40,555 bases of DNA from Burkholderiales bacterium (GTDB taxonomy: Bacteria > Pseudomonadota > Gammaproteobacteria > Burkholderiales > Burkholderiaceae_C): NCBI GenBank assembly GCA_025361305.1, contig JANYAN010000198.1, positions 1-40,555 on the forward strand, written 5' to 3'. The notes beneath the pieces are model-generated. The model did not search any database. It was not told where the DNA came from and saw only the letters and a list, made by a program, of their open reading frames with translations. Of the stretch, positions 3,855 to 40,555 are shown piece after piece; within the stretch, counting starts at the first letter, position 1; each line of letters starts with the position of its first letter. Both the position numbers and the translations under genes were made by a program.

Positions 3855-3868
3855 GCAGCAATTTCCGC

Positions 3869-4759: not shown

Positions 4760-5546
4760 GCTTCAGCACGCCATCGCCAGGAGCCTGCTGCGCGGCGATG
4801 TCAAGGAAGCCTCTGCCTTTGTCGAGAGCCAAGGATTGACCCATGAAGAACGGCTTGCGATTTACCGAAACACCTCGGCTGGCGTGATGGTGGGCGCCCT
4901 CCGGCTGGCCTTCGTGGCCGTGCAGCATGTACTTGGCGCGGACTTCTTCGAAGGAGCGGCGCGCCTGTTCGTCGGCGAAACACCACCGGGCAGTGCCTGG
5001 CTGGACCAATATGGGGCGGACTTTCCTGAATTTCTGGCCCGACTGCCCCAGACAGCGTCCATCCCGTACCTGGGTGACCTGGCGCGGCTCGAGTGGAGCG
5101 TCAACATCGTCCTGCACGCAGTCGAAGCACCGTTCCTGGACATCGCGGATTTGACCGGCATGCAGGAGGCAGACCTTGCACAACTGCGTCTTGCGCCGCA
5201 TCCGGGCGTGCAACTGCTTCGCTGCGACTTCCCGGCCGACGCGATTTGGCGCGCCGTGCTCGATCGCGACGATGACGCGATGGCGGCAATCCGACTGTCG
5301 GATGGTCCTGTCTGGCTGCTGGTTCAACGAACCGCCAAAGGTATTGACCTCCTTCGCTTGAGCGAGGTGCAGTGGCGAATCGCACGCGAGTTGTTCTTGG
5401 GGCAATCACTGGCCGCCGTGGTGGCAATGGCACCCGATGCCCAAGCCCATGCCATCCTGGCGACGCTTCTCACGCGTGAATGTTTCACGACTTTCAGTCC
5501 GGCCCCCGAGTCGTTCGCACGCCATACCCGCAGGATTCACATATGA
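4743..5546 (+). CDS. bufC: DUF2063 (BufC/HvfC-type) MNIO partner protein
   Basis: Motifs LLELQHAIA, RLAIYRN, LGADFF, YGADFPEFL and DLARLEW. Start set at ATG 4743, overlapping the end of DUF692. Confidence 0.85.
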   Translation: MPTLLELQHAIARSLLRGDVKEASAFVESQGLTHEERLAIYRNTSAGVMVGALRLAFVAVQHVLGADFFEGAARLFVGETPPGSAWLDQYGADFPEFLARLPQTASIPYLGDLARLEWSVNIVLHAVEAPFLDIADLTGMQEADLAQLRLAPHPGVQLLRCDFPADAIWRAVLDRDDDAMAAIRLSDGPVWLLVQRTAKGIDLLRLSEVQWRIARELFLGQSLAAVVAMAPDAQAHAILATLLTRECFTTFSPAPESFARHTRRIHI

Positions 5547-12305: not shown

Positions 12306-12372
12306 GCCGGTCAGATGACGCACGCAACTTTCGTCGCGCGCGCACTGCCCTCCAACCTTGCGGGAAAAAGCG

Positions 12373-14649: not shown

Positions 14650-14687
14650 GCACGCACGCACGCACCCACCCTCTTCCTGGAGCGAAC

Positions 14688-15836
14688 ATGAACTTCAAAA
14701 GAAACTCGGTCGCGCTCGGCGTGGCCGCTCTCGCAGCCATCGCCGCGCCGTTGGCGATGGCACAAGACTCCGGCTGGTATGCCGGTGCCAACGTGGGCCG
14801 CTCGGCAGCAACCATTGATGACACCCGCATCAGCGCCGGGCTGCTCGGCCAGGGACTGGGTACCGCCTCGATCGACGACCGAGACCACAACACGGGCTAC
14901 AAGCTGTTCGGCGGGTACCAGTTCGGCCGCAACCTCGGTCTTGAAGCGGGTTACTTCGACCTCGGGCACTTTGGCTACACGGCACACACCGTACCGCCGG
15001 GGACGCTGGATGGTGACATGAAGCTTCGGGGACTCAATCTCGACCTGGTTGGCACACTGCCCCTCGGGGAAAGACTGTCCGTGCTGGGCCGGGTGGGCGT
15101 CACGTCGGCTCGTGCCAGCGACAGCTTCAGCGCCACCGGTGCGGCGCATGTTCCCTATTCCAGTGCCAACCCCAGCGAGCGGGCGACCAACTGGAAAGCC
15201 GGTATCGGGCTGGCCTACAACTTCACCCCAGCCCTGGCCATGCGCCTGGAAGCCGAGCGTTACCGCGTCAACGACGCGGTGGGCAACAGGGGTCATGTGG
15301 ACATGATGTCGGTGGGCCTGGTCTACCGCTTCGGCGGTGCGTCGCCCGCCCCTCGGGCGGCGGCCCCAGCACCAGCCTACATCGCCGCTGCTGCGCCGCC
15401 ACCGGTGGTCGTGGCGCCTGCTCCACCGCCGCCGCCAGCACCGGCCCCTGTGGCACCGATGAGGATCAGCCTGTCGGCGGACGCATTGTTCGAATTCGAC
15501 AAATCGACGTTGAAGCCCGCGGGCCGGCAGGAGCTGGACAAGCTGGCCAGCGATCTGCGTGGCATCCGCTACGACTCGATCCAGGTCATCGGCCACACCG
15601 ACCGGATCGGCTCGCACGACTACAACATGAAGCTGTCCACTCGGCGCGCGCAGACCGTGGGCGACTATCTGGTGCAGTCAGGCGTCCCCGTGGCCAAGAT
15701 CGCCGCCAAGGGCGTGGATGGCGCGCAGCCAGTGACCAAACCAGGCGACTGCAAGGGCAACAAGGTCACACCGGCGCTGATCGCCTGCCTGCAGCCTGAC
15801 CGCCGGGTCGATGTCGAAGTGACGGGAACGAAATAA
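14688..15836 (+). CDS. OmpA family outer membrane protein (beta-barrel, Pro/Ala linker, peptidoglycan-binding domain)
   Basis: Signal peptide, then GWYAGANVG..YKLFGGYQF..VGLVYRFG, a PAPAP linker, ADALFEFDKS, GHTDRIGS..YN..LS.RRA and CLQPDRRV. Real start is ATG 14688 inside the 846-aa ORF. Confidence 0.93.
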   Translation: MNFKRNSVALGVAALAAIAAPLAMAQDSGWYAGANVGRSAATIDDTRISAGLLGQGLGTASIDDRDHNTGYKLFGGYQFGRNLGLEAGYFDLGHFGYTAHTVPPGTLDGDMKLRGLNLDLVGTLPLGERLSVLGRVGVTSARASDSFSATGAAHVPYSSANPSERATNWKAGIGLAYNFTPALAMRLEAERYRVNDAVGNRGHVDMMSVGLVYRFGGASPAPRAAAPAPAYIAAAAPPPVVVAPAPPPPPAPAPVAPMRISLSADALFEFDKSTLKPAGRQELDKLASDLRGIRYDSIQVIGHTDRIGSHDYNMKLSTRRAQTVGDYLVQSGVPVAKIAAKGVDGAQPVTKPGDCKGNKVTPALIACLQPDRRVDVEVTGTK

Positions 15837-25003: not shown

Positions 25004-26023
25004 TCACTCGTCCAGGTGGCGCACGAACGACAGCCGCTGTGACGGGACGAACCCGGTGCGCTGGAAAAAACCCAGCAGCGCCAGATCGTTCGATGCCACA
25101 AGGGTCTCGACCCGTTCGATCTTCAGTTCGCCCAGGTTGGCGAACAGCTGCGCCATCAGCGCGTGGCCGATGCCGTGCTCCCACGCGGAGATATCCACGC
25201 CTATCGTGTCCACCACGGCCACCGGTTCGGTGCGGCCGAAATCCCCCAGGTCTGCGCGAGCCATCACGAAGCCCACGATCGCACCGTCCAGGCGTGCAGA
25301 CAGCGAAACGCGGATCGCCGAATCGTCCATCGCCTCGGCCAGTCGGGCGGCAATGTAGCCGCTGCGGTCGCGCCCGGTGATGCCGTGGTCGATGCGAGCA
25401 ATCTCGCGCAGGTCTTCGGGGCGCATGGCGCGCACTTCGGCGCGGCCCAGGGCCAGCCTTTCGTGGTCGTTGCCCTCGGGGGCGCCGAAGTTGACCTCGC
25501 CGCCAACGCCCTGCCCCGTGGCGAGCGTGATGTCCTCGTCGCCCAATGGCGAGCGCGTGCCCTCGCCAGGGGTCGCCTGCAGGATGTAGTTGGGCGCCAG
25601 CTCGAACCCCATGGCGCCCAGCCAGTGAAGCATTTGCGCGTCGTGCCAGGTCGCGCCGGTGTGCAGGTTGCGGATGCCGTGCCGGCCGGCCCAATCGGCC
25701 AGCACCTTGAACAGTTGCGCGCCGCCGCCGTGCCCGCGCGCATCAGGGCGCATGCCCACCATCTCCAGCCGCAGCCCCGGCTGGGCACGGCCGAATTCGC
25801 CCTCAAGCACGCGGGCCAGGATGTAGCCGGCCAGGCCCGATTCATCCGTGGCGGCAAACTGCGCATGCAATGCAGGCTCACGCAGGGCGGCGGCCAGGCG
25901 GCGCTGCACGTAGTCGCCGCGCGGCCGGCCTTCCAGGGCCGCATCGATGGTCACCACGGCCGGCAAGTCGTCGCGCGTCAATGCACGGATGGTGAGCAAC
26001 TGCCCTGCAGCGACTTCGGTCAT
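25004..26023 (-). CDS. Tandem (two-domain) GNAT acetyltransferase, BadL-like
   Basis: Two repeats of IR(A)L/M..DL..ID, GEFGR/GDFGR and acetyl-CoA motif A (RGHGGG; EHGIG). Confidence 0.82.
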   Translation of the reverse strand: MTEVAAGQLLTIRALTRDDLPAVVTIDAALEGRPRGDYVQRRLAAALREPALHAQFAATDESGLAGYILARVLEGEFGRAQPGLRLEMVGMRPDARGHGGGAQLFKVLADWAGRHGIRNLHTGATWHDAQMLHWLGAMGFELAPNYILQATPGEGTRSPLGDEDITLATGQGVGGEVNFGAPEGNDHERLALGRAEVRAMRPEDLREIARIDHGITGRDRSGYIAARLAEAMDDSAIRVSLSARLDGAIVGFVMARADLGDFGRTEPVAVVDTIGVDISAWEHGIGHALMAQLFANLGELKIERVETLVASNDLALLGFFQRTGFVPSQRLSFVRHLDE

Positions 26024-26042
26024 GGTGAGGTCCTTCTATGAT

Positions 26043-26522
26043 TCAGGTCGCCGCGTAGGCGAAGGCCAGTTCGCGGTCGGTGTCGTCATCGAGCAAGTCG
26101 TCCAGCAGCGGCAACAGAGCCATGGTTTCCTTCTGAATGTGCGCGACCTGGCGCTCCACCAGCTCCAGCGCCATGGTGCGCAGCGTGCCCCAGCGCACCT
26201 CGTCAATCGTGCCTTGCACGGCCAGCCTGGCCAGCGGCAGCATTTCAGTAGCGACTTCGCGGATCGCCTCGTGCTCCTCGAAGAGCAGCGCGGCCATGCC
26301 GCCGTCGCCGGCATCCGCCATGCGCGGGAACAGCAACTCCTCCTCAAACTGGAAGTGGCGGTTGATGTCGAGCTCCAGTGCGCCCACCAGCGTGGCTATC
26401 AGGCTGGATGCGTCGGGCGCGATGCGCGTGGCGCGGCCCAGTGCCTGCTCCACCTTGCCCAGCAGGGTGAGGAGGTTGCGGTGCTCCTCGTCGAGGAGGC
26501 GGCTGACCTGGCTGGTTGTCAT
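26043..26522 (-). CDS. Hemerythrin/HHE cation-binding domain protein
   Basis: Ligand pattern EEH, HFQFEEELLFP, EEHEAI and HIQKE..LLP. Confidence 0.85.
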   Translation of the reverse strand: MTTSQVSRLLDEEHRNLLTLLGKVEQALGRATRIAPDASSLIATLVGALELDINRHFQFEEELLFPRMADAGDGGMAALLFEEHEAIREVATEMLPLARLAVQGTIDEVRWGTLRTMALELVERQVAHIQKETMALLPLLDDLLDDDTDRELAFAYAAT

Positions 26523-26536
26523 GAGGTGAAGAAATC

Positions 26537-26564
26537 GTATTCTGGTATTTCGTTACCAATATAC
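26537..26564. promoter_or_regulatory. AT-rich imperfect inverted repeat (candidate repressor operator)
   Basis: GTATTCTGGTA-TTTCGT-TACCAATATAC, 9 of 11 arm positions complementary; it overlaps the putative -10 of the hemerythrin gene. Confidence 0.55.
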
Positions 26565-26587
26565 TGGCGCAAACAGGATGACGCCAT

Positions 26588-26603
26588 CTTGAGGTAGCTC
26601 AAG
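26588..26603. promoter_or_regulatory. FNR-family-like box
   Basis: Palindromic arms CTTGAG-GTAG-CTCAAG (consensus TTGAT-N4-ATCAA), about 70 bp upstream of the hemerythrin start. Confidence 0.55.
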
Positions 26604-27873
26604 CTCTCGCCCTTTGCAGGCGATGCAGCACCGTCGCGTAAAAGACCAGGAAGGCGGCCGCGCCTGTGGCCCCAGTGGCTGCGGATAGAACCGCCAGCAG
26701 ATGACTGTCGAACGCCGCGGCCAGTCCCAGCCCCGCCAGTGCGGCGACGTGGCACGCGAAGTGGATGCGCAGGGCTGTCTCGTGAGTTAGCGCCGATGGC
26801 GTAGGCGAACGGCGCCCTGCGCCCGCCGCATGCATGGCTGCCAGAAAAGGCAGGATGCGCTGCAGCATGCCCAGCAGGAAGCTCAGCAGCCAGACCCCAA
26901 TCAGGCACAACCCGAACCAGGTCGCCAGCCGGGGGACGGGCCACTCGAGCACCAGGCCCAATGCCAGCACAAGACTCGTCCCCAAACCGGTCCAGCCGAC
27001 TTTCACCAGCACGAAGGAGCGGCCGAGCTCGCGCCGCATGCCGCCTCTTAGCACCCGGAACATGGCGCGCAGGTGCAGGGCAACCGCCGCAGCTCCTGCC
27101 AGCAGTGCCGCGCAGCGCAGTGCCGTAGTGGCCAGCCCGAAAATGGCGAGAGCGCCCAGCGACAGCGCCGCCACCGCCAGGGCGCACGAAGCCAGTTGCG
27201 TGCGCTCGCTTGGCACATCGGCCAGCGCAAACATCGGCACCAGGATGTAGGACAGGCCCAGCGCCAGCATGCCCATGAAGCCGAAGGGAGCGAACACCAG
27301 GTGCAGCACCAAAGGGGTCTCGCGCCCAGGCCCCGGTAGCCCCAGCCAGGTCGCCGCCAGCGCCAGCGCGCTGGCGATCACCGCGCCCAGCGACACCAGC
27401 GCGACCCATCCATGTGCAACGACGCCCCGCATGCCGCGCGCCCCGCGCAGGTTCTTTGCCGTCAGTGCGGCCCATAGGGCCAGGCCCGCTGTGACGGCCA
27501 CCGCACCACCCGCCAGCACCGCCGGACGGGCCAGGCCCATGCCCAGCGCCAACCCGGCCACGCCCGGTGTGTACAGCCACCAGATCGCGGCCAGCAGCCG
27601 ATGGTCCGGCGCGCCCTGGCGGCTTGCGACGGGCAGCAGCTGGGCGCCCGCGCCCAGCGCCGTCATGCCGAGCACGCCCAGCGTCAGCAAGTGCAGTGAG
27701 GCCAATGGCCAGCCCAACCCTGCCGAAAAATCCAGCCACTGGCCAGCGCCGGCCGCCAGGGCCAGCCAGGCCAGAAGGTGGAATACCGCCGCCGCGCCAA
27801 AATAGCGCAAGGGAATCGATGCCGGCAGCAACCGGCTTCTGGCATCGCCGAGGAAGACCCCGGCCCGGCTCAC
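26599..27873 (-). CDS. Polytopic membrane protein (about 12 TM, His-containing helices) of the type associated with DUF2249
   Basis: Very hydrophobic, with repeated HLLTLG / HLVFAPFGF / HFACH helices. GTG 27873 overlaps the DUF2249 stop. Confidence 0.75.
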   Translation of the reverse strand: MSRAGVFLGDARSRLLPASIPLRYFGAAAVFHLLAWLALAAGAGQWLDFSAGLGWPLASLHLLTLGVLGMTALGAGAQLLPVASRQGAPDHRLLAAIWWLYTPGVAGLALGMGLARPAVLAGGAVAVTAGLALWAALTAKNLRGARGMRGVVAHGWVALVSLGAVIASALALAATWLGLPGPGRETPLVLHLVFAPFGFMGMLALGLSYILVPMFALADVPSERTQLASCALAVAALSLGALAIFGLATTALRCAALLAGAAAVALHLRAMFRVLRGGMRRELGRSFVLVKVGWTGLGTSLVLALGLVLEWPVPRLATWFGLCLIGVWLLSFLLGMLQRILPFLAAMHAAGAGRRSPTPSALTHETALRIHFACHVAALAGLGLAAAFDSHLLAVLSAATGATGAAAFLVFYATVLHRLQRARA

Positions 27874-28151
27874 GGCAACCTGTGCAGCAACAGGCGCACC
27901 TCGCCCGCGGGCGCTTCCATGCGGCAGGCACTCCACCCGATCTCGTCCAGCTCGGGGTACAGCAAAATCGGATCGCGGTCATGGTGGACCACCACCGGCA
28001 TTTCACGGTCCACCGATTGCAGCAGCCGCAGGATCGCAACCAGAGGCTGGGGCGGTACCAGGCCGCGCACGTCGATATGGGCTGCCTGCGCTTCCAGCCA
28101 TTGCCGTGGCGCGCCCGACCGATCCACGACTGATGAGGCCTCAGTGGTCAT
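27870..28151 (-). CDS. DUF2249 domain protein (SirA/TusA-like fold)
   Basis: IDVRGLVPPQPLVAIL..HHDRDPILLYPELDEIG. Confidence 0.8.
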   Translation of the reverse strand: MTTEASSVVDRSGAPRQWLEAQAAHIDVRGLVPPQPLVAILRLLQSVDREMPVVVHHDRDPILLYPELDEIGWSACRMEAPAGEVRLLLHRLP

Positions 28152-29184
28152 ATTGGCGGCTCAGTACCCGCGCGTCTTCCAGCAGGGCAGCGCCATTCGC
28201 GCCCTTGGCCGAGACTTCCCTGGCCCATTGATCGTCCACTTCCGTGGTGACCTTCACCCACCGCGCCAGTTCGGCCGGCGCCAGCGCAAAGACCTGGTTG
28301 CCCCGGTCGGTGGCCAGCTTGTGGAAAGGCACGACCACGCTGTCGAAACCCTTCTCGCCGGCCCAGGCCGAGACCTCGGCGCCACTGTTGGCGTCGATCA
28401 CCTTCTTCAGATCGGCTGGCAGGCCGTCGTACCGCGCCTGGTTCATGACGAAGGCAAAGATCGAGTTGGCGAACTTCGGCTGGCCCGCCGGCACGTCGAG
28501 ATGGCTGTGGGCGATTTCCTGCAGCTTGGCGGCAGGCACGCCTTCCCACGGCACCATGGCGCCGTCGATCACGCCCTTGGCCATCGCTTCCGGCACGGCC
28601 GGCAACGGCATCTGGACCGGTGTGGCGCCCAGGGCGGCAAGCATGCGCGAATTCAATCGCGTCGCCGCGCGGATCTTCAGGCCCTTGAGTTCTTCCAGTG
28701 TCTTCACGCCCTTGGCACTGGTCAGGTGGAACGACGAGCCGTCGTTGGTGTGCAGCCACAGCGGCTTGACGCCGGCATACTCGTCCTGCGCATGCTTCTG
28801 CACGAAGTACCAGAACGCCTGGCTGGACCCCTTGGCACTGCGCGTGAAGAAGGGCAACTCGAACACTTCGCTCTTGACGAAGCGGCCGGCCGAATAAGTG
28901 GGGATGGTCCAGACAATGTCGGCCACGCCGTCCTTGGCCTGGTCGAACAGCTGGGCCGGCGTGCCGCCCAGCTGCATCGCGGGATAGATCTGGCACTTGA
29001 GCCGGTCGGCCGATTCCTTGGCGATCTTGTCGCACCAGGACTGGATCAGGTTGATGTGCACGTTGGAGGTGCCGGGCAGGAAATGGTGCACCTTGAGCAC
29101 CACTTGCTGCGCCAGCGCCGGCGTGAGCGTGCCAGCCGCGATGACCGCGGCGGCGACAAGACGAACGACGGATCGAATACGCAT
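28141..29184 (-). CDS. dctP: TRAP transporter substrate-binding protein
   Basis: Signal peptide; motifs LKVHHFLP, IYPAMQLGG, GVADIVWT..GRF..FELPF and KGLKIR. Confidence 0.92.
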   Translation of the reverse strand: MRIRSVVRLVAAAVIAAGTLTPALAQQVVLKVHHFLPGTSNVHINLIQSWCDKIAKESADRLKCQIYPAMQLGGTPAQLFDQAKDGVADIVWTIPTYSAGRFVKSEVFELPFFTRSAKGSSQAFWYFVQKHAQDEYAGVKPLWLHTNDGSSFHLTSAKGVKTLEELKGLKIRAATRLNSRMLAALGATPVQMPLPAVPEAMAKGVIDGAMVPWEGVPAAKLQEIAHSHLDVPAGQPKFANSIFAFVMNQARYDGLPADLKKVIDANSGAEVSAWAGEKGFDSVVVPFHKLATDRGNQVFALAPAELARWVKVTTEVDDQWAREVSAKGANGAALLEDARVLSRQYDH

Positions 29185-29212
29185 GACATGTCTCCTGGGG
29201 TTTGGACGGGGA

Positions 29213-30544
29213 TCAGGTATGGAAAGTGCGCACCAGCACCAGCGACAGCACCGGGAAGAACAGCAGCAGTGCGGTGCGCACGAAATCCGACAGCAGGAAG
29301 GGCATCACGCCCTTGAAGGTGGCGCTCAGCGGCACGTTCTTGGCCAGCCGGTTGATGATGTAGACGTTCATGCCCACCGGCGGGTGCACCAGGCCGATTT
29401 CCACCACCATCAGGGCCAGGATGCCGAACCAGATCGATTTGTCGGTCGCGCCCAGACCCCAGAAGTCCAGCCCCATCACCACCGGGTAGAACACGGGAAT
29501 CGTCAGCAGGATCATGGCCAGCGAGTCCATCACGCAGCCCAGCAGCACGTACGTGAGCAGGATGGCCAGCATCACCAGCAATGGCGGAAAGCCACTGCCC
29601 TTGACCCACGCGGCCAGCTCGGTGGGCATCTGCGACAGCGCCAGCGCGGTGTTGAGCTGGTCAGCGCCCAGCAGCACCAGGAAGATCATGGCGGTGGTCT
29701 GCGCCGTGCCCAGCGCCACGTCCCACAGGCCACGCCAGCGCAAGCCGCCATTGGCCACGGCCAGCACGCCGCAAGCGGCCGCGCCGATGGCTGCCGCCTC
29801 GGTCGGATTGGCCCAGCCGCCGTAGATGCCGACGATGACAACCACGAACACGGCCAGCACCGGCAAGACGACGACCAGCGACTTGATCCGCTCGGGCCAG
29901 GCGACGCGCGGCCCGGCCGGGCCGGTCGAGGGCTTCCAGCGCACGATGATCTGGATCACGATCATGTAGCCGACCATCGCGATCAGGCCGGGCACGATCG
30001 CGGCCATGAACAGCTTGCCGATCGACTCCTGCGTCAGGATGGCGTAGATCACCAGCGGCACGGACGGCGGGATCATGATACCCAGGGTGCCGCCAGCTGC
30101 CAGCGCACCGGTGGCCAGCGCTCCCGAATATTTGGCCCGCTCGAGTTCGGGCAGCGCGACCTGGCCCATCGTCGCAGCGGTCGCCAGTGACGAGCCGCAG
30201 ATCGCTCCGAAGGCCGCGCAGGCGCCCACCGCAGCCATCGCGATACCGCCACGCCAATGACCCATGAACGCACTGACAAAGCGGAACAGCGAACGCGACA
30301 GTCCGCCGTGCGTGGCGAACTGGCCCATCAGCAGGAACAGCGGAATGACGATCAGGTCGTAGTTGGACAGGCGCGCATAGGCCAGGTTTTTTAGCGAGTT
30401 AAGCAGTGGCGTCCACTGGCCCCCGGTGAAGGCGAAATAGCCGCCGGCGCCCACCATGAACATGGCGACGCCGATGGGCACGCGCAAGACCAGCAGCACC
30501 ATCAACACGCCGAACAGCACCAGCCCGGATTCGATGCCACTCAT
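29213..30544 (-). CDS. dctM: TRAP transporter large permease
   Basis: Motifs ICGSSLATAATMG, GGTLGIMIPPS, IGKLFMA and LVHPPVGMN. Confidence 0.93.
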   Translation of the reverse strand: MSGIESGLVLFGVLMVLLVLRVPIGVAMFMVGAGGYFAFTGGQWTPLLNSLKNLAYARLSNYDLIVIPLFLLMGQFATHGGLSRSLFRFVSAFMGHWRGGIAMAAVGACAAFGAICGSSLATAATMGQVALPELERAKYSGALATGALAAGGTLGIMIPPSVPLVIYAILTQESIGKLFMAAIVPGLIAMVGYMIVIQIIVRWKPSTGPAGPRVAWPERIKSLVVVLPVLAVFVVVIVGIYGGWANPTEAAAIGAAACGVLAVANGGLRWRGLWDVALGTAQTTAMIFLVLLGADQLNTALALSQMPTELAAWVKGSGFPPLLVMLAILLTYVLLGCVMDSLAMILLTIPVFYPVVMGLDFWGLGATDKSIWFGILALMVVEIGLVHPPVGMNVYIINRLAKNVPLSATFKGVMPFLLSDFVRTALLLFFPVLSLVLVRTFHT

Positions 30545-31074
30545 GGCGATCTCTCACGCACAGCCAGACGCAGGTGCCAGCCAAAACGGTAGAGCCCGGC
30601 CAGCGCCAGCAGCACGAAGCCCGGCACCATCAGCGCCTGACCCAGCCACAGAGGCAGGCCCAGGATCATGGAGGTCTCGCCGACGGCACCGAGCATGGCG
30701 GCGCCCGCACCCGTGCGCCAGGCCAGCAGCGCGCCAAACAGGCCGACCAGTGCCGAGCCGACGGCATCGAGCGCATGGATCGCGCGCAAGGGCAGCCGCT
30801 CGGTAAAGAAGTCGACCTTCACGTCGCCCCGATTCATGTGGCAGTAGGCGAAGAACGTGGCGGCAGCAAAAGCCGAACACAGCTGCAGCAGTTCGACATC
30901 GCCCGGGACCGGCGCCGAAAAGAGCTTGCGCCCCGTGATGGAAACGATCGACATGGCCACCAGCGCAATGAAAACGATCGCTCCGGCCACCGCCGTCACC
31001 TTGCAGACGGCGAGCAGGCCCCGGCCCAGCGGGCCAAACGGCTCGACAGTCTCGGTGGGCAGAGGGGCTTCCAT
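30541..31074 (-). CDS. dctQ: TRAP transporter small permease
   Basis: Four TM segments; motifs PVPGDVEL, GDVKVDFF and GETSMILGLP. Confidence 0.88.
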   Translation of the reverse strand: MEAPLPTETVEPFGPLGRGLLAVCKVTAVAGAIVFIALVAMSIVSITGRKLFSAPVPGDVELLQLCSAFAAATFFAYCHMNRGDVKVDFFTERLPLRAIHALDAVGSALVGLFGALLAWRTGAGAAMLGAVGETSMILGLPLWLGQALMVPGFVLLALAGLYRFGWHLRLAVRERSP

Positions 31075-31892
31075 CAGTTGCCTTCGAACACGGGCTTCTG
31101 CTTGGCGGCGAACGCGTGGTAGGCCCTTTCGAAGTCATGGGTCTGCATGCAGATGGCCTGGGCCTGGGCCTCGGCCTCGATACATTCGCCCAGGCCGGCG
31201 CTCCATTCCTGCCAAAGCATGGTCTTGGTCATCGCGTGCCCGAAGTTCGGACCGTCTGCCAGCTCCTTCGCCAGCGCTGTGGCGGTAGCCAGCACCGCAT
31301 CGGGCTCGACCAGGCGGTTGTAGAAGCCAAAGCGTTCGGCCTCTTCGCCGCCAACCACGCGGCCTGTGTATAGCAAGTCGGCCGCGCGCGACAGCCCGAT
31401 CAGCCGGGGCAGCAACGTGCACGCGCCCATGTCGGCGCCGGCCAGACCGACCCGCACGAACAGGAAGGCCAGCTTGCTGCGCGCGGTGGCCACACGCATG
31501 TCGGAGCCGCAGGCAATCATGGCGCCAGCGCCGGTACACACGCCGTCGATCGCCGCGATGATGGGCTGCGGGCAGGCGCGCATGGCCTTGACCATGTCAC
31601 CCGTCATGCGGGTGAACTCCAGCAATTCGGGCATCGCCATCTTGACCAGCGGCCCGATGATCTCGTGTACATCGCCGCCCGAGCAGAAGTTGCCGCCCGA
31701 GCCGGTGAAGACCACGGCCTTGATGTCGGTGGCGTAGACCATCTCGCGGAACAGGTCGCGCAACTCGCCGTAGGAATCAAACGTCAGCGGGTTCTTGCGG
31801 TCGGGGCGATTGAGCGTGATGGTGGCGACCTTGCCCTCGACGCTGTAGCCGAAGTGGGTGGCGCGGTAGTTGGCAAGCTGGATGCGTTTCAT
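31074..31892 (-). CDS. Enoyl-CoA hydratase/crotonase family protein (resembles the subfamily found in aminobenzoyl-CoA/salicylyl-CoA clusters)
   Basis: Motifs [42 protein letters not shown] and [14 protein letters not shown]. Start ATG 31892. Confidence 0.88.
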
Positions 31893-31928
31893 GTGCGGGC
31901 TCCTGGAAGTAGTGGGTGTACGAAGCAT

Positions 31929-32675
31929 TCAGCCTGCCATCGTCAAGCCGCCACTGACGCTGAGCACCTGGCCGGTGATGTAGTTGGCGCGGCTACACGC
32001 GAAGAACAGGATCGCGTCGGCCACTTCTTCGGGCTGGCCGAGGCGGCGGAACGGGATCGCCTTGGTCAGCGCATCCTTCACCTTGTCCGGTACGGCCGCC
32101 ATCAGCGGCGTGTCGGTCGGTCCGGGGCAGACGCAGTTGACATTGATCTGGTAGCGGGCCACCTCTCGGGCCAGCGACTTGGTGAAGGCGATCAGACCAC
32201 CCTTGGCGCCCGAGTACACCGTCTCGCCCATGCTGCCCACACGACCGGCGTCGCTGGCCACATTGATGATTCGGCCACTGCGCCGCTCGATCATGGCCGG
32301 CAGCAGCGCCTTGACCAGTTGCATGGGGCCGATGAAGTTGAGGGCAATCACCCTGTCCCACAGTTGAGGCGTCCCTTCCCAGAACGGGTGGGTCGTGCCC
32401 CAGCCGGCACCATTGACGATCACGTCGGGAATGCCGAATTGCGTCGCCACCGTCTTGGCGAACGCTTCGATCGACTCCGGCCGGGTCAGGTCCACGCTGA
32501 GGTAGTCGGCCCGGTGGCCAGCGGCGCGCAAGTCGTCGGCGGCTTGAGCGCCCCTGGCTTCGTCGATATCGGCCAGCAATACCTTGGCGCCGGCTTGCGC
32601 GAACGCTTGTGCGGTGGCACGGCCGATGCCGGAGGCGGCGCCTGTGATGAGGGCGGTGCGTTGGTCGAGCTTCAT
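31929..32675 (-). CDS. SDR oxidoreductase, 2-hydroxycyclohexanecarboxyl-CoA dehydrogenase (BadH)-like
   Basis: TGAASGIG, NGAGW, ASDAGRVGSMGETVYSGAKGG (YxxxK), VCPGPTDTPL and SVSGGLTM. Confidence 0.85.
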   Translation of the reverse strand: MKLDQRTALITGAASGIGRATAQAFAQAGAKVLLADIDEARGAQAADDLRAAGHRADYLSVDLTRPESIEAFAKTVATQFGIPDVIVNGAGWGTTHPFWEGTPQLWDRVIALNFIGPMQLVKALLPAMIERRSGRIINVASDAGRVGSMGETVYSGAKGGLIAFTKSLAREVARYQINVNCVCPGPTDTPLMAAVPDKVKDALTKAIPFRRLGQPEEVADAILFFACSRANYITGQVLSVSGGLTMAG

Positions 32676-32712
32676 GGGGTTGACTCCTGAAAGAAAGATG
32701 GCGGACCGGGCG

Positions 32713-33498
32713 CTAACTCAGGCCACGGTCAAGAAAGGCGGCGACGCGTTCCCGCGTGACCGGGTGCTGGTACAGCCGTCGGGTATGGGCAAGTTCTTCG
32801 GCGAACCCGTCACGTGCCGGGTCTGCAGCGGCGGCGATGCATTGCTTGGCCGCATTGACGGCGTGCCGCGGCTGCGCGGCCAGGCGCCGGGCCAGGGCCA
32901 GGGCTCCATCGGCGAGATCAGCCCGCGGTAGGGACCACTGCACCAGGCCCAGCCGTTCGGCGGTGGCGCCATCGACGGTCTCGGCCCCCAGGATCAGTCG
33001 CCTGGCCAGCCCAGGTCCGACCAATCGCGTCAGCCGCTGCGTCCCGCCGGCAGCCGCAAGCAGGCCGAGGCCGGCTTCGGGCAATCCAACGCGGGCTTGG
33101 TGCGCGGCGATTCGCAAGTCGCAGGCCAGGGCGAGTTCGAAGCCGCCGCCAAGGGCCGCGCCGCCGATTTCGGCCAGCGTCACCAGCGGCGCCGTCTCCA
33201 GCTGGTGAGCCAGCCGCTGCAGCCGTGCCACAAAGGACAGCATGCATTCGAGTCCCAGTGCGGTTGCGATACTGCGTCGCATCAAGGCCAGATCTGCACC
33301 GGCGCAGAAAACACGGCAGCTGCTGCGCAGGTGCAGCACCGAGATTTCGGGGTCGGCGCAGGCCCGTTCGATCGCCTCTTCCAAAGCGTCCACCAACCCG
33401 TCGTCGAGTGCGTTGACCGGCGCGCGTGCCATCGTGAGCGTGAGCACGCCCGCGCTGCGCGCGACGTGCACCGGCGGCTCGCGCTCAATCGTTGTCAT
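32713..33498 (-). CDS. Enoyl-CoA hydratase/isomerase family protein
   Basis: PVNAL, FCAGADL, ALGGGFELALACDLR and GLPE..LGL..AGGTQRL, with both catalytic Glu present. Start ATG 33498 overlaps the fusion-gene stop. Confidence 0.9.
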   Translation of the reverse strand: MTTIEREPPVHVARSAGVLTLTMARAPVNALDDGLVDALEEAIERACADPEISVLHLRSSCRVFCAGADLALMRRSIATALGLECMLSFVARLQRLAHQLETAPLVTLAEIGGAALGGGFELALACDLRIAAHQARVGLPEAGLGLLAAAGGTQRLTRLVGPGLARRLILGAETVDGATAERLGLVQWSLPRADLADGALALARRLAAQPRHAVNAAKQCIAAAADPARDGFAEELAHTRRLYQHPVTRERVAAFLDRGLS

Positions 33499-36410
33499 GA
33501 GACACGTGCTCCGATGGGCGGAAGCATCTCGGCCAGGCGCCGGCGCAGCAGCTTGCCGGTGGGTGTGCGTGGAAGGGCTTCGATCGCGTGCATCGAGCCC
33601 GGGCGCTGATGCGCCGGTAAAGCCGCAGCCCGCTCGCGCAGCACGCCCTCGACTTGCGCGGCCTGTCCGTCGCGAGCCACGTAGAAAAAGGCGACGCTGT
33701 CCATGCCGTCCCGGTCGGGCACACACACCGTGCCAGCCTCCAGCAGCCCCGGCACGCCGGCAGCCAAACGCTCTTCGAGCTCGACCAGGTTCACCCAGCG
33801 GCCCTTGATCTTGACCAATGAGTCCTCGCGCCCGGCAAACCGCCAGTTGCCGCTTTCGGTGCGCAGGAACAGGTCGGCCGGGCAGAAAGCGCCGTCGCGG
33901 AAGGTTTCGGCCTGGGCCGCGGGCCGGTCCAGGTAGCCCAGCGCCAGGGTCGACACGCGAAAGCGCAATCGGGTCGGTATGCCAGCGCTGGCCGCCCCGG
34001 GATCAAGCGGCTCGACCTGAACACCGGGCGAGGGCCGCAGCCCTTCGTCGCCATCCACGGCCGTGAGCACCAGCACCAGCGTTTCGGACGCACCGTAGCC
34101 GTCCACCATGCCGATGCCAGTGGCCTCGCGCCAGGCCTGGCGCAGACTCGCCGGCAAGGCCTCACCTGCCGATACGCAGGTGCGGATGCCGGCCGCTGCC
34201 AATGCCGGCGCCTGGCCCGCATGCAGCAGGCTGCGGTACAGCGAAGGCACGCTGAAAAACACGCTGGGCCGCATTTGCTCGACCGTGGCGGCCACCGACG
34301 TTGCGGTTGGCCATTGGGGGTCGAGGATGACGGTGGCGCCGATCTTCAGGCCGGCAAACAGGCTGTTGGTCTGGGGATAGGAGAAGAACAGTCGCGACGT
34401 GGCGAACAGACGGTCCTGCGCCGTGATGCCCAGGCGCTCGCGCGAGATACGCTCGATTTCGCGCGCGAACCGGTGCCGGTGCACCACGGCCTTGGGTTTG
34501 CCCGAGGTACCGGACGAATGGCACCAGAATGCCGGCGAGTCTTCGCCCATCGCCTGCGGCGCAATGGGTGTCGCGTTGGCCACGGCATGCCGGCCTTCGT
34601 CGACCAGGATCACCCGCTCGCACCAGGGCGAAGGTGTGTCCTGTGCCGACTCCGCCAGGATCACATTGAAGCCGGCCTCGTCGAGGATGTAATGCCACTC
34701 CGGCGCAGGAATGTGCGGATTGACCGCTACGGCCACGCCGCCGGCCCAGATAGTGCCCAGAAACGCGACCACCCAGTCGATGCCGTCGGGCAGCTTGATG
34801 GCGACGCGGTCGCCGGGCTTGAGCCCGCGTGCGCGCCAGACCGCCGCCGCCCGGGCCACGCGATCGCGCAGTTCGCGGTAGCTCAGCCGCTGATCGCCGC
34901 AGACCAGCGCCGTATGGTCGGCCAGGCCGTGCGCCAGCAGCAACGCCGCCCCGTTGATCTGTTCGGCCTGTGTCTGCGGTGCGGCCTCGGGCGTGCGCCG
35001 GCGCCACAGCTGGTATTGCGCCGACAACACCTGCGAATGCTCACGTTCTTCGGCTGCCAGTTCCTCGTACAGGCGACGCTCGGCCGATCCTGTCGCCGCG
35101 TCGGCCGCATGGTTGGCGAAGAAGTCGGCAGCACGCTGTTCCAGTGCGATGGCGATCCGGAACAAGCTATCAGGGTCGTGCGGGCGGTACTCGATGCCGG
35201 TGAAAAGGGACGCGGTCTCGACGCGGAACGGAGGCGTTGGATCGGGAATGTCGGGCACGTGATAGCGGCGCGACAGCGTTTCCATGTGCTCGCCCTCCAT
35301 CACGGCGAACTGGCTGAACAGGGCCTTGAGCGTTTCGTCGGCGCTGTCCGCGGCCGCGCGCTGGTAGAAAGCGCGGCCACCCAGCTCGATCTCGAAGGCC
35401 GCGCGAATCGCCGCCGACCCGGGCGCGCCCGGCCCGTTGGCCAGTTCCTGCAGCAGGCGCTGCGTCAGGGCGGCCGCCACCTGGCGCCGGTAGTTCGATG
35501 GCGTGGCGGTACTGCGCATGGGGCTGACCTGGTGCTGCACCAGCTTGGCCACCCGCGCGAGCAGCGCATCGTCCACCTCCTGGCCCTCCAGCTCGCCCGT
35601 GCCGTCCAGCGACAGGGGATGTGAATTGGTTCCCGACAGGGCGATGCGCAGCGAGACAACGCGGCCCTGCTCCAGCACCAGCGCCACGGCAACGGCAGCC
35701 AGGGGAAAGTCCATCGCCGCGCGCACGCGCGCCTTGCGGTAGCCGCACACAAGGCCCGGTGCTGCGGCGGGCAGGCGCACGCGCACCAGCAGTTCGCCTG
35801 GCTCGAGCGTCAGGTGGGCGGCGCCGTCGTCCCGATACAGTTCATCCAGCGGCAACCAGTGCGTGCCACGGGTCGATTGCAGTTCGACGTGGGCACCCAG
35901 GGCCAGCAGCACCGGTGCCAGGTCACCGCTAAAGGCCGCATGGCAGCGCTTGCCCTGTGGCGCCACGTGGCAGGTTTCCCCGCCACGCTTCAGGCAGTAT
36001 TGATTGCTGGCCCGCCACCACTCGCTCTGGTTGTAGAAGACGCAGCGCGTGTCCTGGCACAGATTGCCGCCCAGCGTGGCCGCACTGCGGTGACCCGGGC
36101 CGGCGGCAGCGCGCGCTGCGTCGGCCAGGGCCGGCCAGCGCGATGCAATGGTCGGGTCGGCGGCAATTCCCGCCAAGGTGAGACCGGCACCGAGCACTGC
36201 GCCTCCATCCGCCAGCGCCTCGACCGCATCGAAACCGGAAACGCCTGATAGGTCGATCACGACCGCAGGGCAGGCAAGCCCACGCCGCATGTTGGGCAAC
36301 AGGTCGGTACCCCCCGCTATCAGGCGCGCCGACGATTCGGTCGCGAGCAATGTGGCCGCCTCGGCCATGGTTTCGGGCCTGCGCAGAATGAACTCGGGAA
36401 GTGCATGCAT
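33495..36410 (-). CDS. hcrB: Fusion protein: 4-hydroxybenzoyl-CoA reductase beta subunit (FAD, [4Fe-4S]) + ferritin/rubrerythrin-like di-iron domain + aryl-CoA ligase (ANL) domain
   Basis: aa 1-324: AGGTDL, ATLGGNLC and the four-Cys insert RCVFYNQSEWWR..YCLKRGGETCHVAPQGKRC. aa ~333-470: E..MEGEH..E..EEREH. aa ~484-971: HSSGTSGKPK, SAGEALP, DGYGASE, GREDSLVK and LPRTPTGK. Confidence 0.88.
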   Translation of the reverse strand: MHALPEFILRRPETMAEAATLLATESSARLIAGGTDLLPNMRRGLACPAVVIDLSGVSGFDAVEALADGGAVLGAGLTLAGIAADPTIASRWPALADAARAAAGPGHRSAATLGGNLCQDTRCVFYNQSEWWRASNQYCLKRGGETCHVAPQGKRCHAAFSGDLAPVLLALGAHVELQSTRGTHWLPLDELYRDDGAAHLTLEPGELLVRVRLPAAAPGLVCGYRKARVRAAMDFPLAAVAVALVLEQGRVVSLRIALSGTNSHPLSLDGTGELEGQEVDDALLARVAKLVQHQVSPMRSTATPSNYRRQVAAALTQRLLQELANGPGAPGSAAIRAAFEIELGGRAFYQRAAADSADETLKALFSQFAVMEGEHMETLSRRYHVPDIPDPTPPFRVETASLFTGIEYRPHDPDSLFRIAIALEQRAADFFANHAADAATGSAERRLYEELAAEEREHSQVLSAQYQLWRRRTPEAAPQTQAEQINGAALLLAHGLADHTALVCGDQRLSYRELRDRVARAAAVWRARGLKPGDRVAIKLPDGIDWVVAFLGTIWAGGVAVAVNPHIPAPEWHYILDEAGFNVILAESAQDTPSPWCERVILVDEGRHAVANATPIAPQAMGEDSPAFWCHSSGTSGKPKAVVHRHRFAREIERISRERLGITAQDRLFATSRLFFSYPQTNSLFAGLKIGATVILDPQWPTATSVAATVEQMRPSVFFSVPSLYRSLLHAGQAPALAAAGIRTCVSAGEALPASLRQAWREATGIGMVDGYGASETLVLVLTAVDGDEGLRPSPGVQVEPLDPGAASAGIPTRLRFRVSTLALGYLDRPAAQAETFRDGAFCPADLFLRTESGNWRFAGREDSLVKIKGRWVNLVELEERLAAGVPGLLEAGTVCVPDRDGMDSVAFFYVARDGQAAQVEGVLRERAAALPAHQRPGSMHAIEALPRTPTGKLLRRRLAEMLPPIGARVS

Positions 36411-38766
36411 CAGGCCTCCTGCTTGGCGCTGCGCGCCTGCTTGACGCGTTGCTCACGCCTGCGCGCCACCAGGGCGTCAAACACGCGATCGGGTGTCACC
36501 GGCAATTCACTGAGACGCAGGCCCAGCGCATCGGCAATCGCGCTGGTCAGGGCTGGCGGGAAGCCGTGCAGCCCCCCTTCGCTGCCCTCCTTGGCGCCAA
36601 ACGGCCCCAGCGGATCCATGCTTTCGATCAGGGTGACGTCGATCGGCGGCGATTCGGCAATGGTCGGTATGCGGTAGTCGATCAGGTTGGATCGCAGCGC
36701 CAGCCCCTCGTGGTACTGGGTCTCTTCCTGCAGCGCCTGGCCCATGCCCATCCAGACCGCGCCTTGCACCTGTCCCTCGACGGCCATCGGGTTCAGTGCG
36801 CGCCCGCAGTCGTGCGCGACCCAGACATGCTCCACATGCACGGCACCTGTCTCTTCGTCAACCTGCACCTCCACCACCTGGGCGGCATAGCTGAAGCCAG
36901 CCGTGGAACCCACGGCAGCGCCGCGGAACTTGCCGCCCTGCGTCTCCAGCGGTGTCGACCAGGCGCCTTTCACCGTGAGCGTGCCGGATTCGGCCAGTGC
37001 GGCCTCCACGCACTGCCCGAAGGCCAGACGCCGGTCGGTGCCGTTCACCCAGCACGATTCACCTCCCCACTCGATGTCGTCGGGCGACGCCTCCAGTCGC
37101 CTGCCCGCCGCCTCCACCAGCACACGCTTGAGCGCCTCCGCCGCGCGCAAAGCAGCATTGCCCACCATGAACGACACCCGCGATGAGTACGAACCGTTGT
37201 CCTTTGGGGTCAGCGCGCTGTCTGCGGAGACCACGCGAATGCGGGCCATCGGCAGCAGCAGCACCTCGGCAACCACTTGCGTCAGCAGCGTGGTCGAGCC
37301 CTGACCGATGTCGGAAGCGCCGGTCAGGACCGTGATGCCGCCGTCGAAATCGAGCTTGAGGTTGATAACCGCGTGCGGCTCGCCGCTCCAGTGCACCGGC
37401 TTGGCCGATCCGCTGACGTAGTGCGAGCACGCCATGCCCAGCCCGCGTCCCGGGGGCAGCTTGCCGCGTCGCTCGTGCCAGCCCGAGGCCTGTTCGACCG
37501 CGTCAAGACACTCCGGCAGTCCATAGGAGTTGACCTGCAGGTCGTTCAGCGTGCGATACGGCGCTTCGATCAGGTTGGCACGGCGAACAGCGAAAGGGTC
37601 GAGACCGAGCTGGCCCGCCATTTCGTCGAGCAGCGACTCCACCGCGAAGCGCACATTGACGGCACCATGGCCGCGCATCGCGCCGCAGGGTGGCAGATTG
37701 GTGTAGACCCGAAAGCCCCGATAGCGCACCGCGCCTACCTTGTAGAGCGCATGCAGCAGCGCACCGGCATACAGGATGGTCACCAGGCCATAGCCACCGT
37801 AGGCGCCCCCGCGCTGCACCACTTCGGCGTCCAGCGCCGTGATCTCGCCATTGCGCTTGAGGCCCATCTTGACGCGCACTTCGCTGTGCGGCCGGCCGCG
37901 ATGGGTCAGGAAGACTTCCTCGCGCGTCAGCTCCAGCTTCACGGTGCCACCGGCCGCGCGGGCCAGCGCTGCGGTGACCATCTCGAAATTGAGTGGTTCG
38001 ACCCGATGGCCGAAGCCACCGCCCACGAAGGGCTTGACCACCCGGATCTGCGAACTGTCGATGCCCAGCGTCTGCGCCAGCATCAGGTGCAGGTAGTACG
38101 GCACTTGGCTCACCGAATGCACGGTGAGGCGTTCACGCTCGGGCTCCCACTGCGCCACCGTGGCGTTGAGCTCGATCTGGCCATGCGCTACTTCTGCGCA
38201 TTCGTAGCTGCGTTCCAGGAGGAGGTCGGCGGCGGCAAAGCCGCCCTCGACGTCGCCGAATTCCTGTTCGACCTGGCGTTCCAGGTTGCCCGGTTTGTTG
38301 TCGTGCAGCAGCACTGCGCCGTCTGCGCGGGCCTGCGCGGCGGCAAACATCGCAGGCAGTTCTTCGAATTCCACCTTGACGGCCGCCAGCGCCGCGTGCG
38401 CCGCAGCCTTATCCTCGGCCGCCACCGCAAACAGCGGCTCGCCGCGATAGCGCACCTTGTCGCGCGCCAGCGGCCATTCGTTCTGCGCGATCGGAATCAC
38501 ACCGTAAGGCGCGCTGAAGTCCTGCCCGGTGATGACGGCGCGCACCCCAGGCAGCGCCCGCGCAGCGCTCACATCGATTGCGCGAATGATTCCGTGGGCC
38601 ACGGGGCTGCGCCCGATGAGGCCCACCAGCGCCGGCCCCAGCGCCAGGTCAGCGGTGTAGCGAGCCCGCCCCGTGACCTTTTCGATCCCGTCGACCAGGG
38701 GCGTGCGTTCGCCGATCGAGTGCGTCGGCGGCGCCGGCGGCCGCTCCAGCGTGTGCGGCTCGCGCT

Positions 38767-38770
<4 letters not shown>
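36410..38770 (-). CDS. hcrA: 4-hydroxybenzoyl-CoA reductase alpha (molybdopterin) subunit
   Basis: Xanthine-oxidase-family motifs DGIEKVTG.A.Y..D, SQVPYY.H, VGGGFG, PPCGAMRGHG, DIGQGS, YSSRV, VEGQVQG and GPFGAKE. Start ATG 38770. Confidence 0.9.
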
Positions 38771-39237
<467 letters not shown>

Positions 39238-39238
39238 C

Positions 39239-40555
39239 TCACGCCTCCTTCGGCCTGAGGTCGCGCACGCGCACGGCCTTGCCTTGCGAGCGCGGCACGG
39301 TGCCGGGTGCCTGGACCACGACTTCGGTCGTGATGCCGACCAGCGACTTGATGTGGTGCCTGACGTCACGCGCCACTTGCGCGAAGCTCTCCGGGTTGGT
39401 GCAGGGCAGGGCTTCGACCTCGACACGCACACGGTCGAGGCTGCCTTCTCGCTCGACCACCAGCTGGTAGTGCGGCGCCAGGAACGGGCGGCCCACCAGC
39501 ACCGCCTCGATCTGTGAGGGATAGACGTTGACACCGCGAATGATCAGCATGTCGTCGTTTCGGCCGGTGATGCGAAGGATGCGAACGTGGGTGCGGCCAC
39601 AGTCGCACCGAGCCGTGGTCAGCCGCGTGATGTCGCGCGTGCGGTAACGCAGCATCGGCAGCGCCTGCTTGGTCAGCGTGGTGATCACCAGTTCGCCAGC
39701 TTCGCCCTCGGGCAGCGACCGGCCGGTTTCGGGGTCGATGACCTCGAACAGAAAGTGATCCTCCCAGCCATGCAGGCCGTCCTGCACTTCGCACTCGCAT
39801 GCCACGCCCGGCCCCATGATCTCGGACAGACCGTAGATGTCGACCGCCTTCAGGCCCAGCCGCGCCTCGATCTCGCGGCGCATTGCCGTGCTCCAGGGCT
39901 CGGCACCGAACATGCCGATGCGCAGTGCGCTGGTGCGCAGATCCACACCCTGCTGTTCAGCCACTTCGGCAATGGCCAGCGCATAGGAAGGCGTGGCGCA
40001 AAGCACACGTGCCTTGAAATCCGTGATTAGGGTGATCTGGCGCTCGGTGGAGCCACCGGACATCGGCACCACCACCGCGCCAAGGCGCTCGGCACCGTAG
40101 TGGGCGCCCAGGCCGCCGGTGAACAACCCGTAGCCATAGGCGTTGTGCACGACATCGCCCGGGCGCACGCCGGCCGAGTACAGCGAACGGGCCATCAGGT
40201 TGGCCCAGGTATCGATGTCCTTCAGTGTGTAGCCGACGACGGTGGGCTTGCCGGTGGTGCCCGACGAAGCATGCAGGCGCGCCAGTTGATCGCAAGGCCG
40301 CGCGAACAGGCCGAACGGGTACTGGTCGCGCAGATCGGTCTTGACCGTGAAGGGCAGCCGCGCCAGATCCGACAGGGTGCGGATGTCCTGCGGCAGCGCG
40401 CCTGCTGCCTGCAGGCGCTGGCACACCAGCGGCACATGGTCATAGGCGTTCTGCACGGTTGCCTGCAGCCGTTCCAGCTGCAGGTGGGCGAGCCGCTCGC
40501 GTGGCATGGTTTCGCGCTCGGCGTGCAGGAAGCCGCGTTTTGCCGGCCCGGAGTT
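39239..40555 (-). CDS. paaK: Phenylacetate-CoA ligase family protein (5'-partial)
   Basis: HASSGTTGKPTVVGYT, AYGYGLFTGGLG.HYGAE, FGAEPW, DIYGLSE..GPGV, RYRTRDIT and GR.DDMLIIRGVNV. The frame stays open to the window end (..FLHAERETMPRE..). Confidence 0.9.
   Translation of the reverse strand, partial: NSGPAKRGFLHAERETMPRERLAHLQLERLQATVQNAYDHVPLVCQRLQAAGALPQDIRTLSDLARLPFTVKTDLRDQYPFGLFARPCDQLARLHASSGTTGKPTVVGYTLKDIDTWANLMARSLYSAGVRPGDVVHNAYGYGLFTGGLGAHYGAERLGAVVVPMSGGSTERQITLITDFKARVLCATPSYALAIAEVAEQQGVDLRTSALRIGMFGAEPWSTAMRREIEARLGLKAVDIYGLSEIMGPGVACECEVQDGLHGWEDHFLFEVIDPETGRSLPEGEAGELVITTLTKQALPMLRYRTRDITRLTTARCDCGRTHVRILRITGRNDDMLIIRGVNVYPSQIEAVLVGRPFLAPHYQLVVEREGSLDRVRVEVEALPCTNPESFAQVARDVRHHIKSLVGITTEVVVQAPGTVPRSQGKAVRVRDLRPKEA

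Follow-up and report, generated by a model that had tools for sequence, protein, structure and literature searches.

In a 40,555-nucleotide (nt) contig of a Burkholderiales bacterium (JANYAN010000198.1 of assembly GCA_025361305.1, here called the window; source genome G000), the gene hcrB, for the beta subunit of a predicted 4-hydroxybenzoyl-coenzyme A (CoA) reductase, runs on in frame into a ferritin-like di-iron domain and an aryl-CoA ligase. The resulting three-part protein of 971 amino acids (aa), P0001, belongs to a known system, of which it is a genuine variant, found in one lineage and without description in the open-licence papers searched. Comparison with relatives indicates that the gene likely arose by a single in-frame deletion joining two neighbouring genes in one Ramlibacter-like lineage. 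In the account that we favour and hold to be somewhat probable, this 237-nt deletion left the reductase with its ligase on a flexible tether, the di-iron domain serving mainly as a spacer.

The fusion is present in the source population

The initial annotation, made from the sequence letters, had described one frame without internal stop that codes for HcrB, a ferritin-like domain and an ANL ligase. The frame is indeed open over 971 codons (36410-33495, minus strand), and profile searches returned the same three identities. As had also been remarked, no in-frame Met marks the junctions: there is zero in-frame ATG at either one. In-frame GTG, TTG or ATG codons lie near them (codons 291, 298, 311, 461, 462 and 490); the 15 bases upstream of these hold no Shine-Dalgarno-like sequence, and internal start sites were rejected.

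The source genome comes from short reads (556 contigs, 92% complete) and the three-part form is a singleton, as an assembly artefact might be. This explanation is highly improbable and we reject it, since separately assembled contigs bridge the fusion point. Junction 1 (HcrB/ferritin) is spanned by Logan contigs of two sequencing runs, X3 (35277-36052, depth 6.7) and X4 (35277-36127, depth 5.8), with 0 gaps, 1 mismatch and a depth similar to that of the flanks; junction 2 (ferritin/ligase) is spanned by contigs of all four runs. Both junctions, for which the initial annotation had called for confirmation by reads or PCR, are supported at the contig level. No piece over junction 1 was listed for X1 and X2 (79% of each run covered), two runs that resemble a single data set filed twice. 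All four come from a single study, and the source sample may be among them; no RNA data set was listed as holding the stretch. At the DNA level the fusion is real in the source population, and its predicted product has 104.1 kDa.

Probable origin by a 237-nt deletion

Aligned with the DNA of G005, a genome of the same genus, the window shows a single gap of 237 nt at about 35440. It spans the hcrB stop codon, a spacer of ~50 nt and the whole zinc-ribbon domain of the next gene. In G005 and in G030, of the same genus too, hcrB has its own stop codon, and a distinct gene after it encodes a ~715-aa protein composed of zinc-ribbon, ferritin-like and ligase domains, of which the first carries eight Cys (CxxC..CC..CxxC..CxxC). 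Unfused Burkholderiales proteins of this kind, labelled 'acyl-CoA synthetase/rubrerythrin', would be the direct parent: they are 55-78% identical to P0001 over ferritin and ligase and occupy the identical operon position, the zinc-ribbon being replaced by HcrB in the fusion. The nearest named relatives are Ramlibacter records, and the ligase of P0001 falls within a clade of zinc-ribbon/ferritin/ligase proteins from Ramlibacter-type records, with a support of 99 in the Shimodaira-Hasegawa-like approximate likelihood ratio test (SH-aLRT). This is a quick tree (88 rows, SH-aLRT only, midpoint root), from which the frameshifted ligases of L161 and L163, the short P0005 and roughly half of 80 loci taken from GTDB were omitted.

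The exact breakpoint cannot be placed to the base, because 'ANGP' at the junction is also close to common HcrB ends, ELAGP for instance; a short common Gly-Pro stretch may have seeded the deletion. The sequence 'GPGAPGS', first taken for a dedicated linker, turned out to keep the spacing of the native connector K-GPG(x5)AIR, which unfused relatives have ahead of the ferritin domain. The lack of a published description, noted at first, stands, but the three-part protein is no evolved family; it would go back to an in-frame deletion in one lineage that fused hcrB to a widespread gene and took away the Cys-rich domain of the latter.

Occurrence of the three-part form

Independent copies were looked for, as the initial annotation had proposed, and none was found beyond the source population. 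Among the best 120 of 419 protein matches, P0001 alone has all three parts; 98 of these 120 are ferritin-ligase proteins, 87 with the full eight-Cys pattern and the other 11 mostly truncated at their N-terminus. No HcrB-ferritin fusion appeared among the best 120 of 1596 shorter protein matches, nor any HcrB plus ferritin stretch among 150 rows of a 50%-cluster search, in which clustering would hide singletons. None of the 80 GTDB loci (L059-L138) is fused: hcrB lies directly upstream of the ferritin-ligase gene in 21, a fused Nfn gene stands between in 29, 2 have intermediate gaps and 28 hold no hcrB. Within the genus (118 genomes), 20 genomes besides G000 have the ferritin-ligase gene, never in frame with hcrB, and a junction query was matched end to end by G000 only. 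A DNA pattern scan of JGI metagenomes gave 0 matches to the fused spacing versus 15 to the unfused one; its sensitivity is limited, the pattern requiring an hcrB end of NYRRQ type (19 of the 80 loci, of which 52 hold hcrB) and gaps of 68-98 nt. The top match P0272 (464 aa) was rejected as a second HcrB fusion, being an HcrB whose N-terminal part is duplicated internally; it is encoded on a 2.5-kb contig and is possibly a chimera. Finally, the open-licence papers searched hold no description of three-part or of two-part HcrB-ligase fusions, and the statement that no enzyme of such architecture had been described is upheld within that full-text literature.

The three domains

The N-terminal part belongs to the HcrB family, its dehydroxylase function being predicted from sequence. 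It scores 418.7 bits against TIGR03195, above the curated cut-off (404.55), is at most 80% identical to stand-alone HcrB proteins (325-335 aa), and aligns over residues 1-323 with 1RM6_B (E 1e-90), which we take to be the Thauera aromatica protein, HbaBCD of Rhodopseudomonas palustris presumably being the equivalent. The flavin adenine dinucleotide (FAD) motifs AGGTDL and TLGGNL line up with 1RM6_B, as do R122, C123, C139, C147 and C156 of the [4Fe-4S] insert, whose Arg and Cys are invariant across 41 HcrB sequences. The likeness to HcrCAB (4-hydroxybenzoyl-CoA reductase, 1RM6) includes all three subunits in order, the beta one with FAD motifs and four-Cys insert; 1RM6_B is a 324-aa chain, however, whereas the beta subunit of the fusion continues for 647 residues more. 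In the structure of the reductase, the substrate site is in HcrA, not HcrB, and electrons pass from ferredoxin to the [4Fe-4S] cluster and FAD of HcrB, then via HcrC to the molybdenum in HcrA.

The middle domain is ferritin-like and not rubrerythrin proper, and iron binding is predicted. The best family for residues 330-471 is the C-terminal part (860-1000) of PRK12775 (E 1e-51), with a full-family score of 175.7 versus 1895 bits and no match to the NfnA/NfnB domains; PF02915 remains below its cut-off (20.8 versus 22.8). The ligands E/ExxH/E/ExxH reported earlier are found as E342/E372xxH375/E424/E455xxH458. All seven residues of the di-iron site are invariant in 98/98 homologues and intact in P0001, and the domain probably still binds metal. 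The module of the G005 homologue is modelled as a four-helix bundle with a predicted local distance difference test (pLDDT) score of 90.9. Its top structural match is 2OH3 (Z 13.1, root-mean-square deviation 3.5, 131 aligned), ferritin-like entries make up most of the 50 structural matches listed, and the best Foldseek E is 3.5e-3. As a Z of ~13 is modest for a helical bundle, the ligand pattern weighs more than the score.

With proteins of rubrerythrin, erythrin or bacterioferritin type, the domain has in common the four-helix ferritin-like fold with 4 Glu and 2 His; it differs from the rubrerythrin type by the lack of a rubredoxin-like domain and of an extra Glu on helix C. Peroxide-reducing rubrerythrins carry this Glu three residues after the helix-C ligand. 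The corresponding position is Ala427 here, and Ala in 98/98 homologues. The rubredoxin-like Cys domain is missing from the P0001 chain, where it is deleted, and searches of the rest of G000 gave no zinc-ribbon either.

A wider set of homologues hinted at relaxed selection in the P0001 ferritin domain, which departs at 5/71 conserved columns (mean 1.5; 7/95 as high), mostly by clade-wide changes. Comparison within the closest clade did not bear this out: in 47 columns invariant among the closest relatives the domain has 1 private change, its distance ratio is 1.69 (1.23-1.77 in 14 other close homologues) and its ratio of nonsynonymous to synonymous substitution rates (dN/dS) is 0.25 versus 0.17-0.34.

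The ligase displays the ANL motifs (P-loop 632-640, YGASET 772-777, D846, hinge 860-870 and catalytic K953), with D846 and K953 kept in 71/71 homologues. Its best NCBIfam model is HbdA (NF053567; 320.7 versus a cut-off of 1000), and benzoate-CoA ligase (TIGR02262) gives 263.7 versus 375.25. It has the fold and core motifs of BadA (4EAT, E 2e-61) and HbdA, but stays under both family cut-offs and has a changed substrate motif: FSYPQTN stands where FAYGLGN is expected, and Ala845-Asp846 replaces Gly-Asp. FAYGLGN and Gly-Asp characterize benzoate-CoA ligases in the available text of PMC10803450; specificity may thus differ from that of BadA. We suppose that the enzyme works like benzoate/hydroxybenzoate-CoA ligases, with a substrate predicted from context. 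The preceding ferritin/ligase linker is predicted to be disordered (pLDDT <50 at residues 475-480) and is unconserved in the homologue alignment; the two-domain model of ferritin and ligase has a predicted template modelling score (pTM) of 0.77.

The usual partner of the di-iron module

In relatives, the zinc-ribbon plus ferritin module corresponds to positions 798-1003 of PRK12775, and an upstream gene for a ~795-aa fused NfnAB to positions 1-781. P0156 (998 aa) is a PRK12775 protein with the ferritin-like module as its C-terminus. The usual partner of the di-iron domain is, on these family assignments, an AadN-like Nfn and not the FAD/[4Fe-4S] chain of HcrB.

At L062:2556-4940, and at 41 of the 80 GTDB loci, an AadN-like NfnAB lies just upstream of the zinc-ribbon/ferritin/ligase gene. 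The two genes together amount to PRK12775 split at another point.

AadN, which we take to be RPA0678, resembles the PRK12775-like fused Nfn in architecture; the likeness is drawn via the PRK12775 family and not from the tail of AadN itself. The fusion differs from AadN and PRK12775 by lacking the NfnA/NfnB domains and the zinc-ribbon. In R. palustris, AadN adjoins the hba genes and is required for growth on benzoate and 4-hydroxybenzoate, and strains have either AadN or KorAB (PMC9973337). A ferritin/rubrerythrin domain is mentioned neither in the available text of that paper (0 occurrences) nor in that of an Nfn review (PMC6405883). G000 holds korAB and no AadN-like Nfn was found in it (best match 37% over part), which agrees with the either-AadN-or-KorAB pattern. 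As the Cys domain is deleted as well, the module is there without both its usual partner and this Cys-rich domain, likely its electron relay.

Other fusions of HcrB with a ligase

HcrB-ligase fusions devoid of the ferritin domain form 16 protein clusters among the matches listed, 14 of them full-length (P0002-P0016, P0018). Like P0001, they have HcrB at the N-terminus and an aryl-CoA ligase at the C-terminus, next to hcrA where checked (L154-L158); they differ in their separate origins and in forming a multi-species clade versus a singleton. In the ligase tree the two-part fusions lie on a branch separate from P0001 (support 80), and P0018 has a distant ligase. With a support of only 80, the two-part clade may represent one to three origins, and the tree suggests that HcrB-ligase fusion arose at least three times independently, P0001 included. 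The initial idea of a ligase tethered to HcrB gains support from these at least two other independent fusions. They persist at 56-89% identity, with linkers that vary freely in length and sequence. HcrB may thus tolerate a flexible tether, mildly favoured by selection; where the genes lie side by side, such fusions arise easily in any case.

The clade contains fusions of ~830 aa from several species, and the independent one has 862 aa and a different ligase. In the Casimicrobiaceae family (sample of 251 genomes), two-part fusions occur in 5/30 loci (L154-L158) and the Zn/ferritin module in 8/30, once as a gene apart from the ligase; the module is dispensable there. At L168 (G265) its frame differs from that of the ligase, and it seems to form a gene of its own.

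Operon and genome context

The gene order is paaK-like, hcrC, hcrA, fusion, two hydratases with a short-chain dehydrogenase/reductase (SDR), and a tripartite ATP-independent periplasmic (TRAP) transporter (Table 1). The hcrA stop codon overlaps the start codon of the fusion gene, whose own stop is overlapped by the first downstream gene, an enoyl-CoA hydratase (ATGA). HcrC is ~90% identical to that of relatives, and the hydratase/SDR/hydratase order is identical in G005 and G003.

Table 1. Positions of the fusion gene, its parts and its neighbours in the window
Feature	Positions	Strand	Remarks
PaaK-like ligase	39239-40507	-	upstream, same gene run; TIGR02155 608 bits versus cut-off 646
hcrC, 2x[2Fe-2S] subunit	38767-39237	-	TIGR03193 256 bits versus cut-off 257.8
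hcrA, molybdenum subunit	36410-38770	-	TIGR03194 1173 bits versus cut-off 994.55
Three-part fusion gene	33495-36410	-	single open frame, 971 aa, 104.1 kDa (predicted)
HcrB part, residues 1-324, FAD/[4Fe-4S] beta subunit of 4-hydroxybenzoyl-CoA reductase (predicted)	35439-36410	-	
Fusion junction NGPGAPGS (junction 1, HcrB/ferritin)	35415-35438	-	237 nt of the G005 sequence missing here, in frame
Ferritin-like four-helix domain, residues 333-471	34998-35414	-	di-iron-type E342, Y349, E372, H375, E424, E455, H458
Ferritin/ligase linker, variable	34959-34997	-	native to the widespread zinc-ribbon/ferritin/ligase gene
ANL aryl-CoA ligase, residues 485-971	33495-34958	-	PF00501 E 3e-61
Enoyl-CoA hydratase, BadH-like SDR, PRK08258 enoyl-CoA hydratase	31074-33498	-	downstream
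TRAP transporter (DctQ, DctM, DctP)	28141-31074	-	profile matches

Further downstream, a block at 25004-28151 (minus strand) encodes a DUF2249 protein, a 445-aa membrane protein without Pfam match, a hemerythrin-domain protein and a tandem GNAT, which could regulate the ligase by lysine acetylation; the block is largely repeated near the hcr genes of G005, G030, G017 and G003. A stand-alone second rubrerythrin-like gene lies within the operon of relatives (L021:8142-8639 in G005, similarly in L097 and L120) and is absent from the corresponding place in the window. In relatives, a molybdopterin enzyme and its iron-sulfur and membrane subunits are encoded upstream of the paaK-like gene (L021:17627-19933, L022:10-3988); they presumably resemble phenylacetyl-CoA:acceptor oxidoreductase and so hint at an entry of 4-hydroxyphenylacetate into the Hcr route. 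The window stops short of that position.

Elsewhere in the window, on the plus strand, a short secreted-type reading frame followed by an MbnB/TglH/ChrH-family enzyme and DUF2063 (3534-5546) is likely a cluster for a ribosomally synthesized and post-translationally modified peptide, which we would call 'bufferin-like'; at 12358-15836, an Ig-like repeat protein with an ice-binding-like domain precedes an OmpA-family protein.

In the rest of the source genome we found bcrCBA, a piece of boxB, and korAB beside had. The gene narG was searched for in it and not found. Genome searches returned hcrB and a ligase of the ferritin-ligase type in single copy each, both being the fusion gene.

A probable tolerated tether and its alternatives

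Because the three-part form was found in one population only and was likely born of a deletion, a tolerated tether is more likely than a new kind of enzyme. Going by known enzymology, the ligase would convert a hydroxy-aromatic acid, most likely 4-hydroxybenzoate, with ATP and CoA into the CoA ester, which would diffuse to the molybdenum site in HcrA. KorAB, rather than an AadN-like Nfn, would likely reduce ferredoxin, from which electrons would reach the molybdenum through HcrB and HcrC. The product, benzoyl-CoA, would enter the Bcr (anoxic) or the Box pathway of G000. The likely gain from the tether would be a 1:1 stoichiometry and local concentration, with no tunnel, and the di-iron domain would likely be a folded spacer, orphaned without its probable Cys-rich electron relay.

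Several points weigh against this account. The zinc-ribbon is kept in several relatives without an AadN-like Nfn (e.g. G005, 100% complete), so that loss of Nfn alone does not explain loss of the zinc-ribbon. In G000, 92% complete, the Nfn gene could be unassembled. The substrate is read from context alone. The ferritin domain is undecayed and may still be kept by selection for some function, or else the fusion is perhaps too young for decay.

The deletion could instead have rewired this domain, left without its zinc-ribbon and its Nfn partner. Placed ~8 residues from HcrB, it would take electrons from the FAD/[4Fe-4S] chain, reduce O2 or H2O2 and so shield the reductase at oxic-anoxic boundaries. 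Besides the intact di-iron residues, the lack of relaxed selection and the very short junction, the Bcr and Box routes of G000, the hemerythrin gene of the cluster and the second rubrerythrin-like gene of relatives would fit such a role. We nonetheless consider it unlikely: the form is a singleton, no relative has a ferritin domain on HcrB even though hcrB is directly upstream in 21/80 loci, and the extra Glu of peroxide rubrerythrins is Ala throughout. When HcrB was modelled in complex with a relative's zinc-ribbon/ferritin module, the score was 0.13 versus a mark of 0.32, which speaks neither for nor against the idea. Equally doubtful is the wider idea of a mobile redox accessory, passed from Nfn to ligase to HcrB, which would scavenge O2 or peroxide via the reductase chain while the ligase feeds substrate, the fusion being a third origin of the tether. 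If true, this would make a self-protecting, self-feeding dehydroxylase.

To the same low degree we credit a neutral or mildly harmful accident, in which the chain is cut within a linker or has lost part of one activity, and the allele is bound to stay rare. The fusion is known from one population in one study, and the eight-Cys pattern of the lost domain is otherwise kept in 87/98 homologues. Yet searches of G000 yielded no other hcrB and no other ligase of this type, the remainder of the pathway is intact, the contigs listed show no undeleted allele, and other HcrB-ligase fusions persist.

True channelling, with the tethered ligase docked on HcrA and handing over the aryl-CoA directly, seems very unlikely: at least three independent fusions speak for it; against it stand the position of the substrate site in HcrA and not HcrB, fusion linkers of varying length and sequence, the predicted disorder between ferritin and ligase (two-domain pTM as given above), the ease of fusion between adjacent genes and the unfused state of most relatives.

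The singleton itself captures domain shuffling within an operon, its origin traceable to one deletion; two matters around it carry more weight. HcrB-ligase tethers appear to have arisen on at least three occasions, so that a single complex could both activate and dehydroxylate hydroxy-aromatic acids, and natural fusions make channelling easy to probe; for this, the two-part clade is arguably a better experimental target than the singleton. In addition, an uncharacterised zinc-ribbon/di-iron module moves among an AadN-like electron-supply enzyme, a ligase and HcrB, and this 'ribbon-less' natural variant is a ready control for its role in facultative degraders with Bcr and Box pathways.

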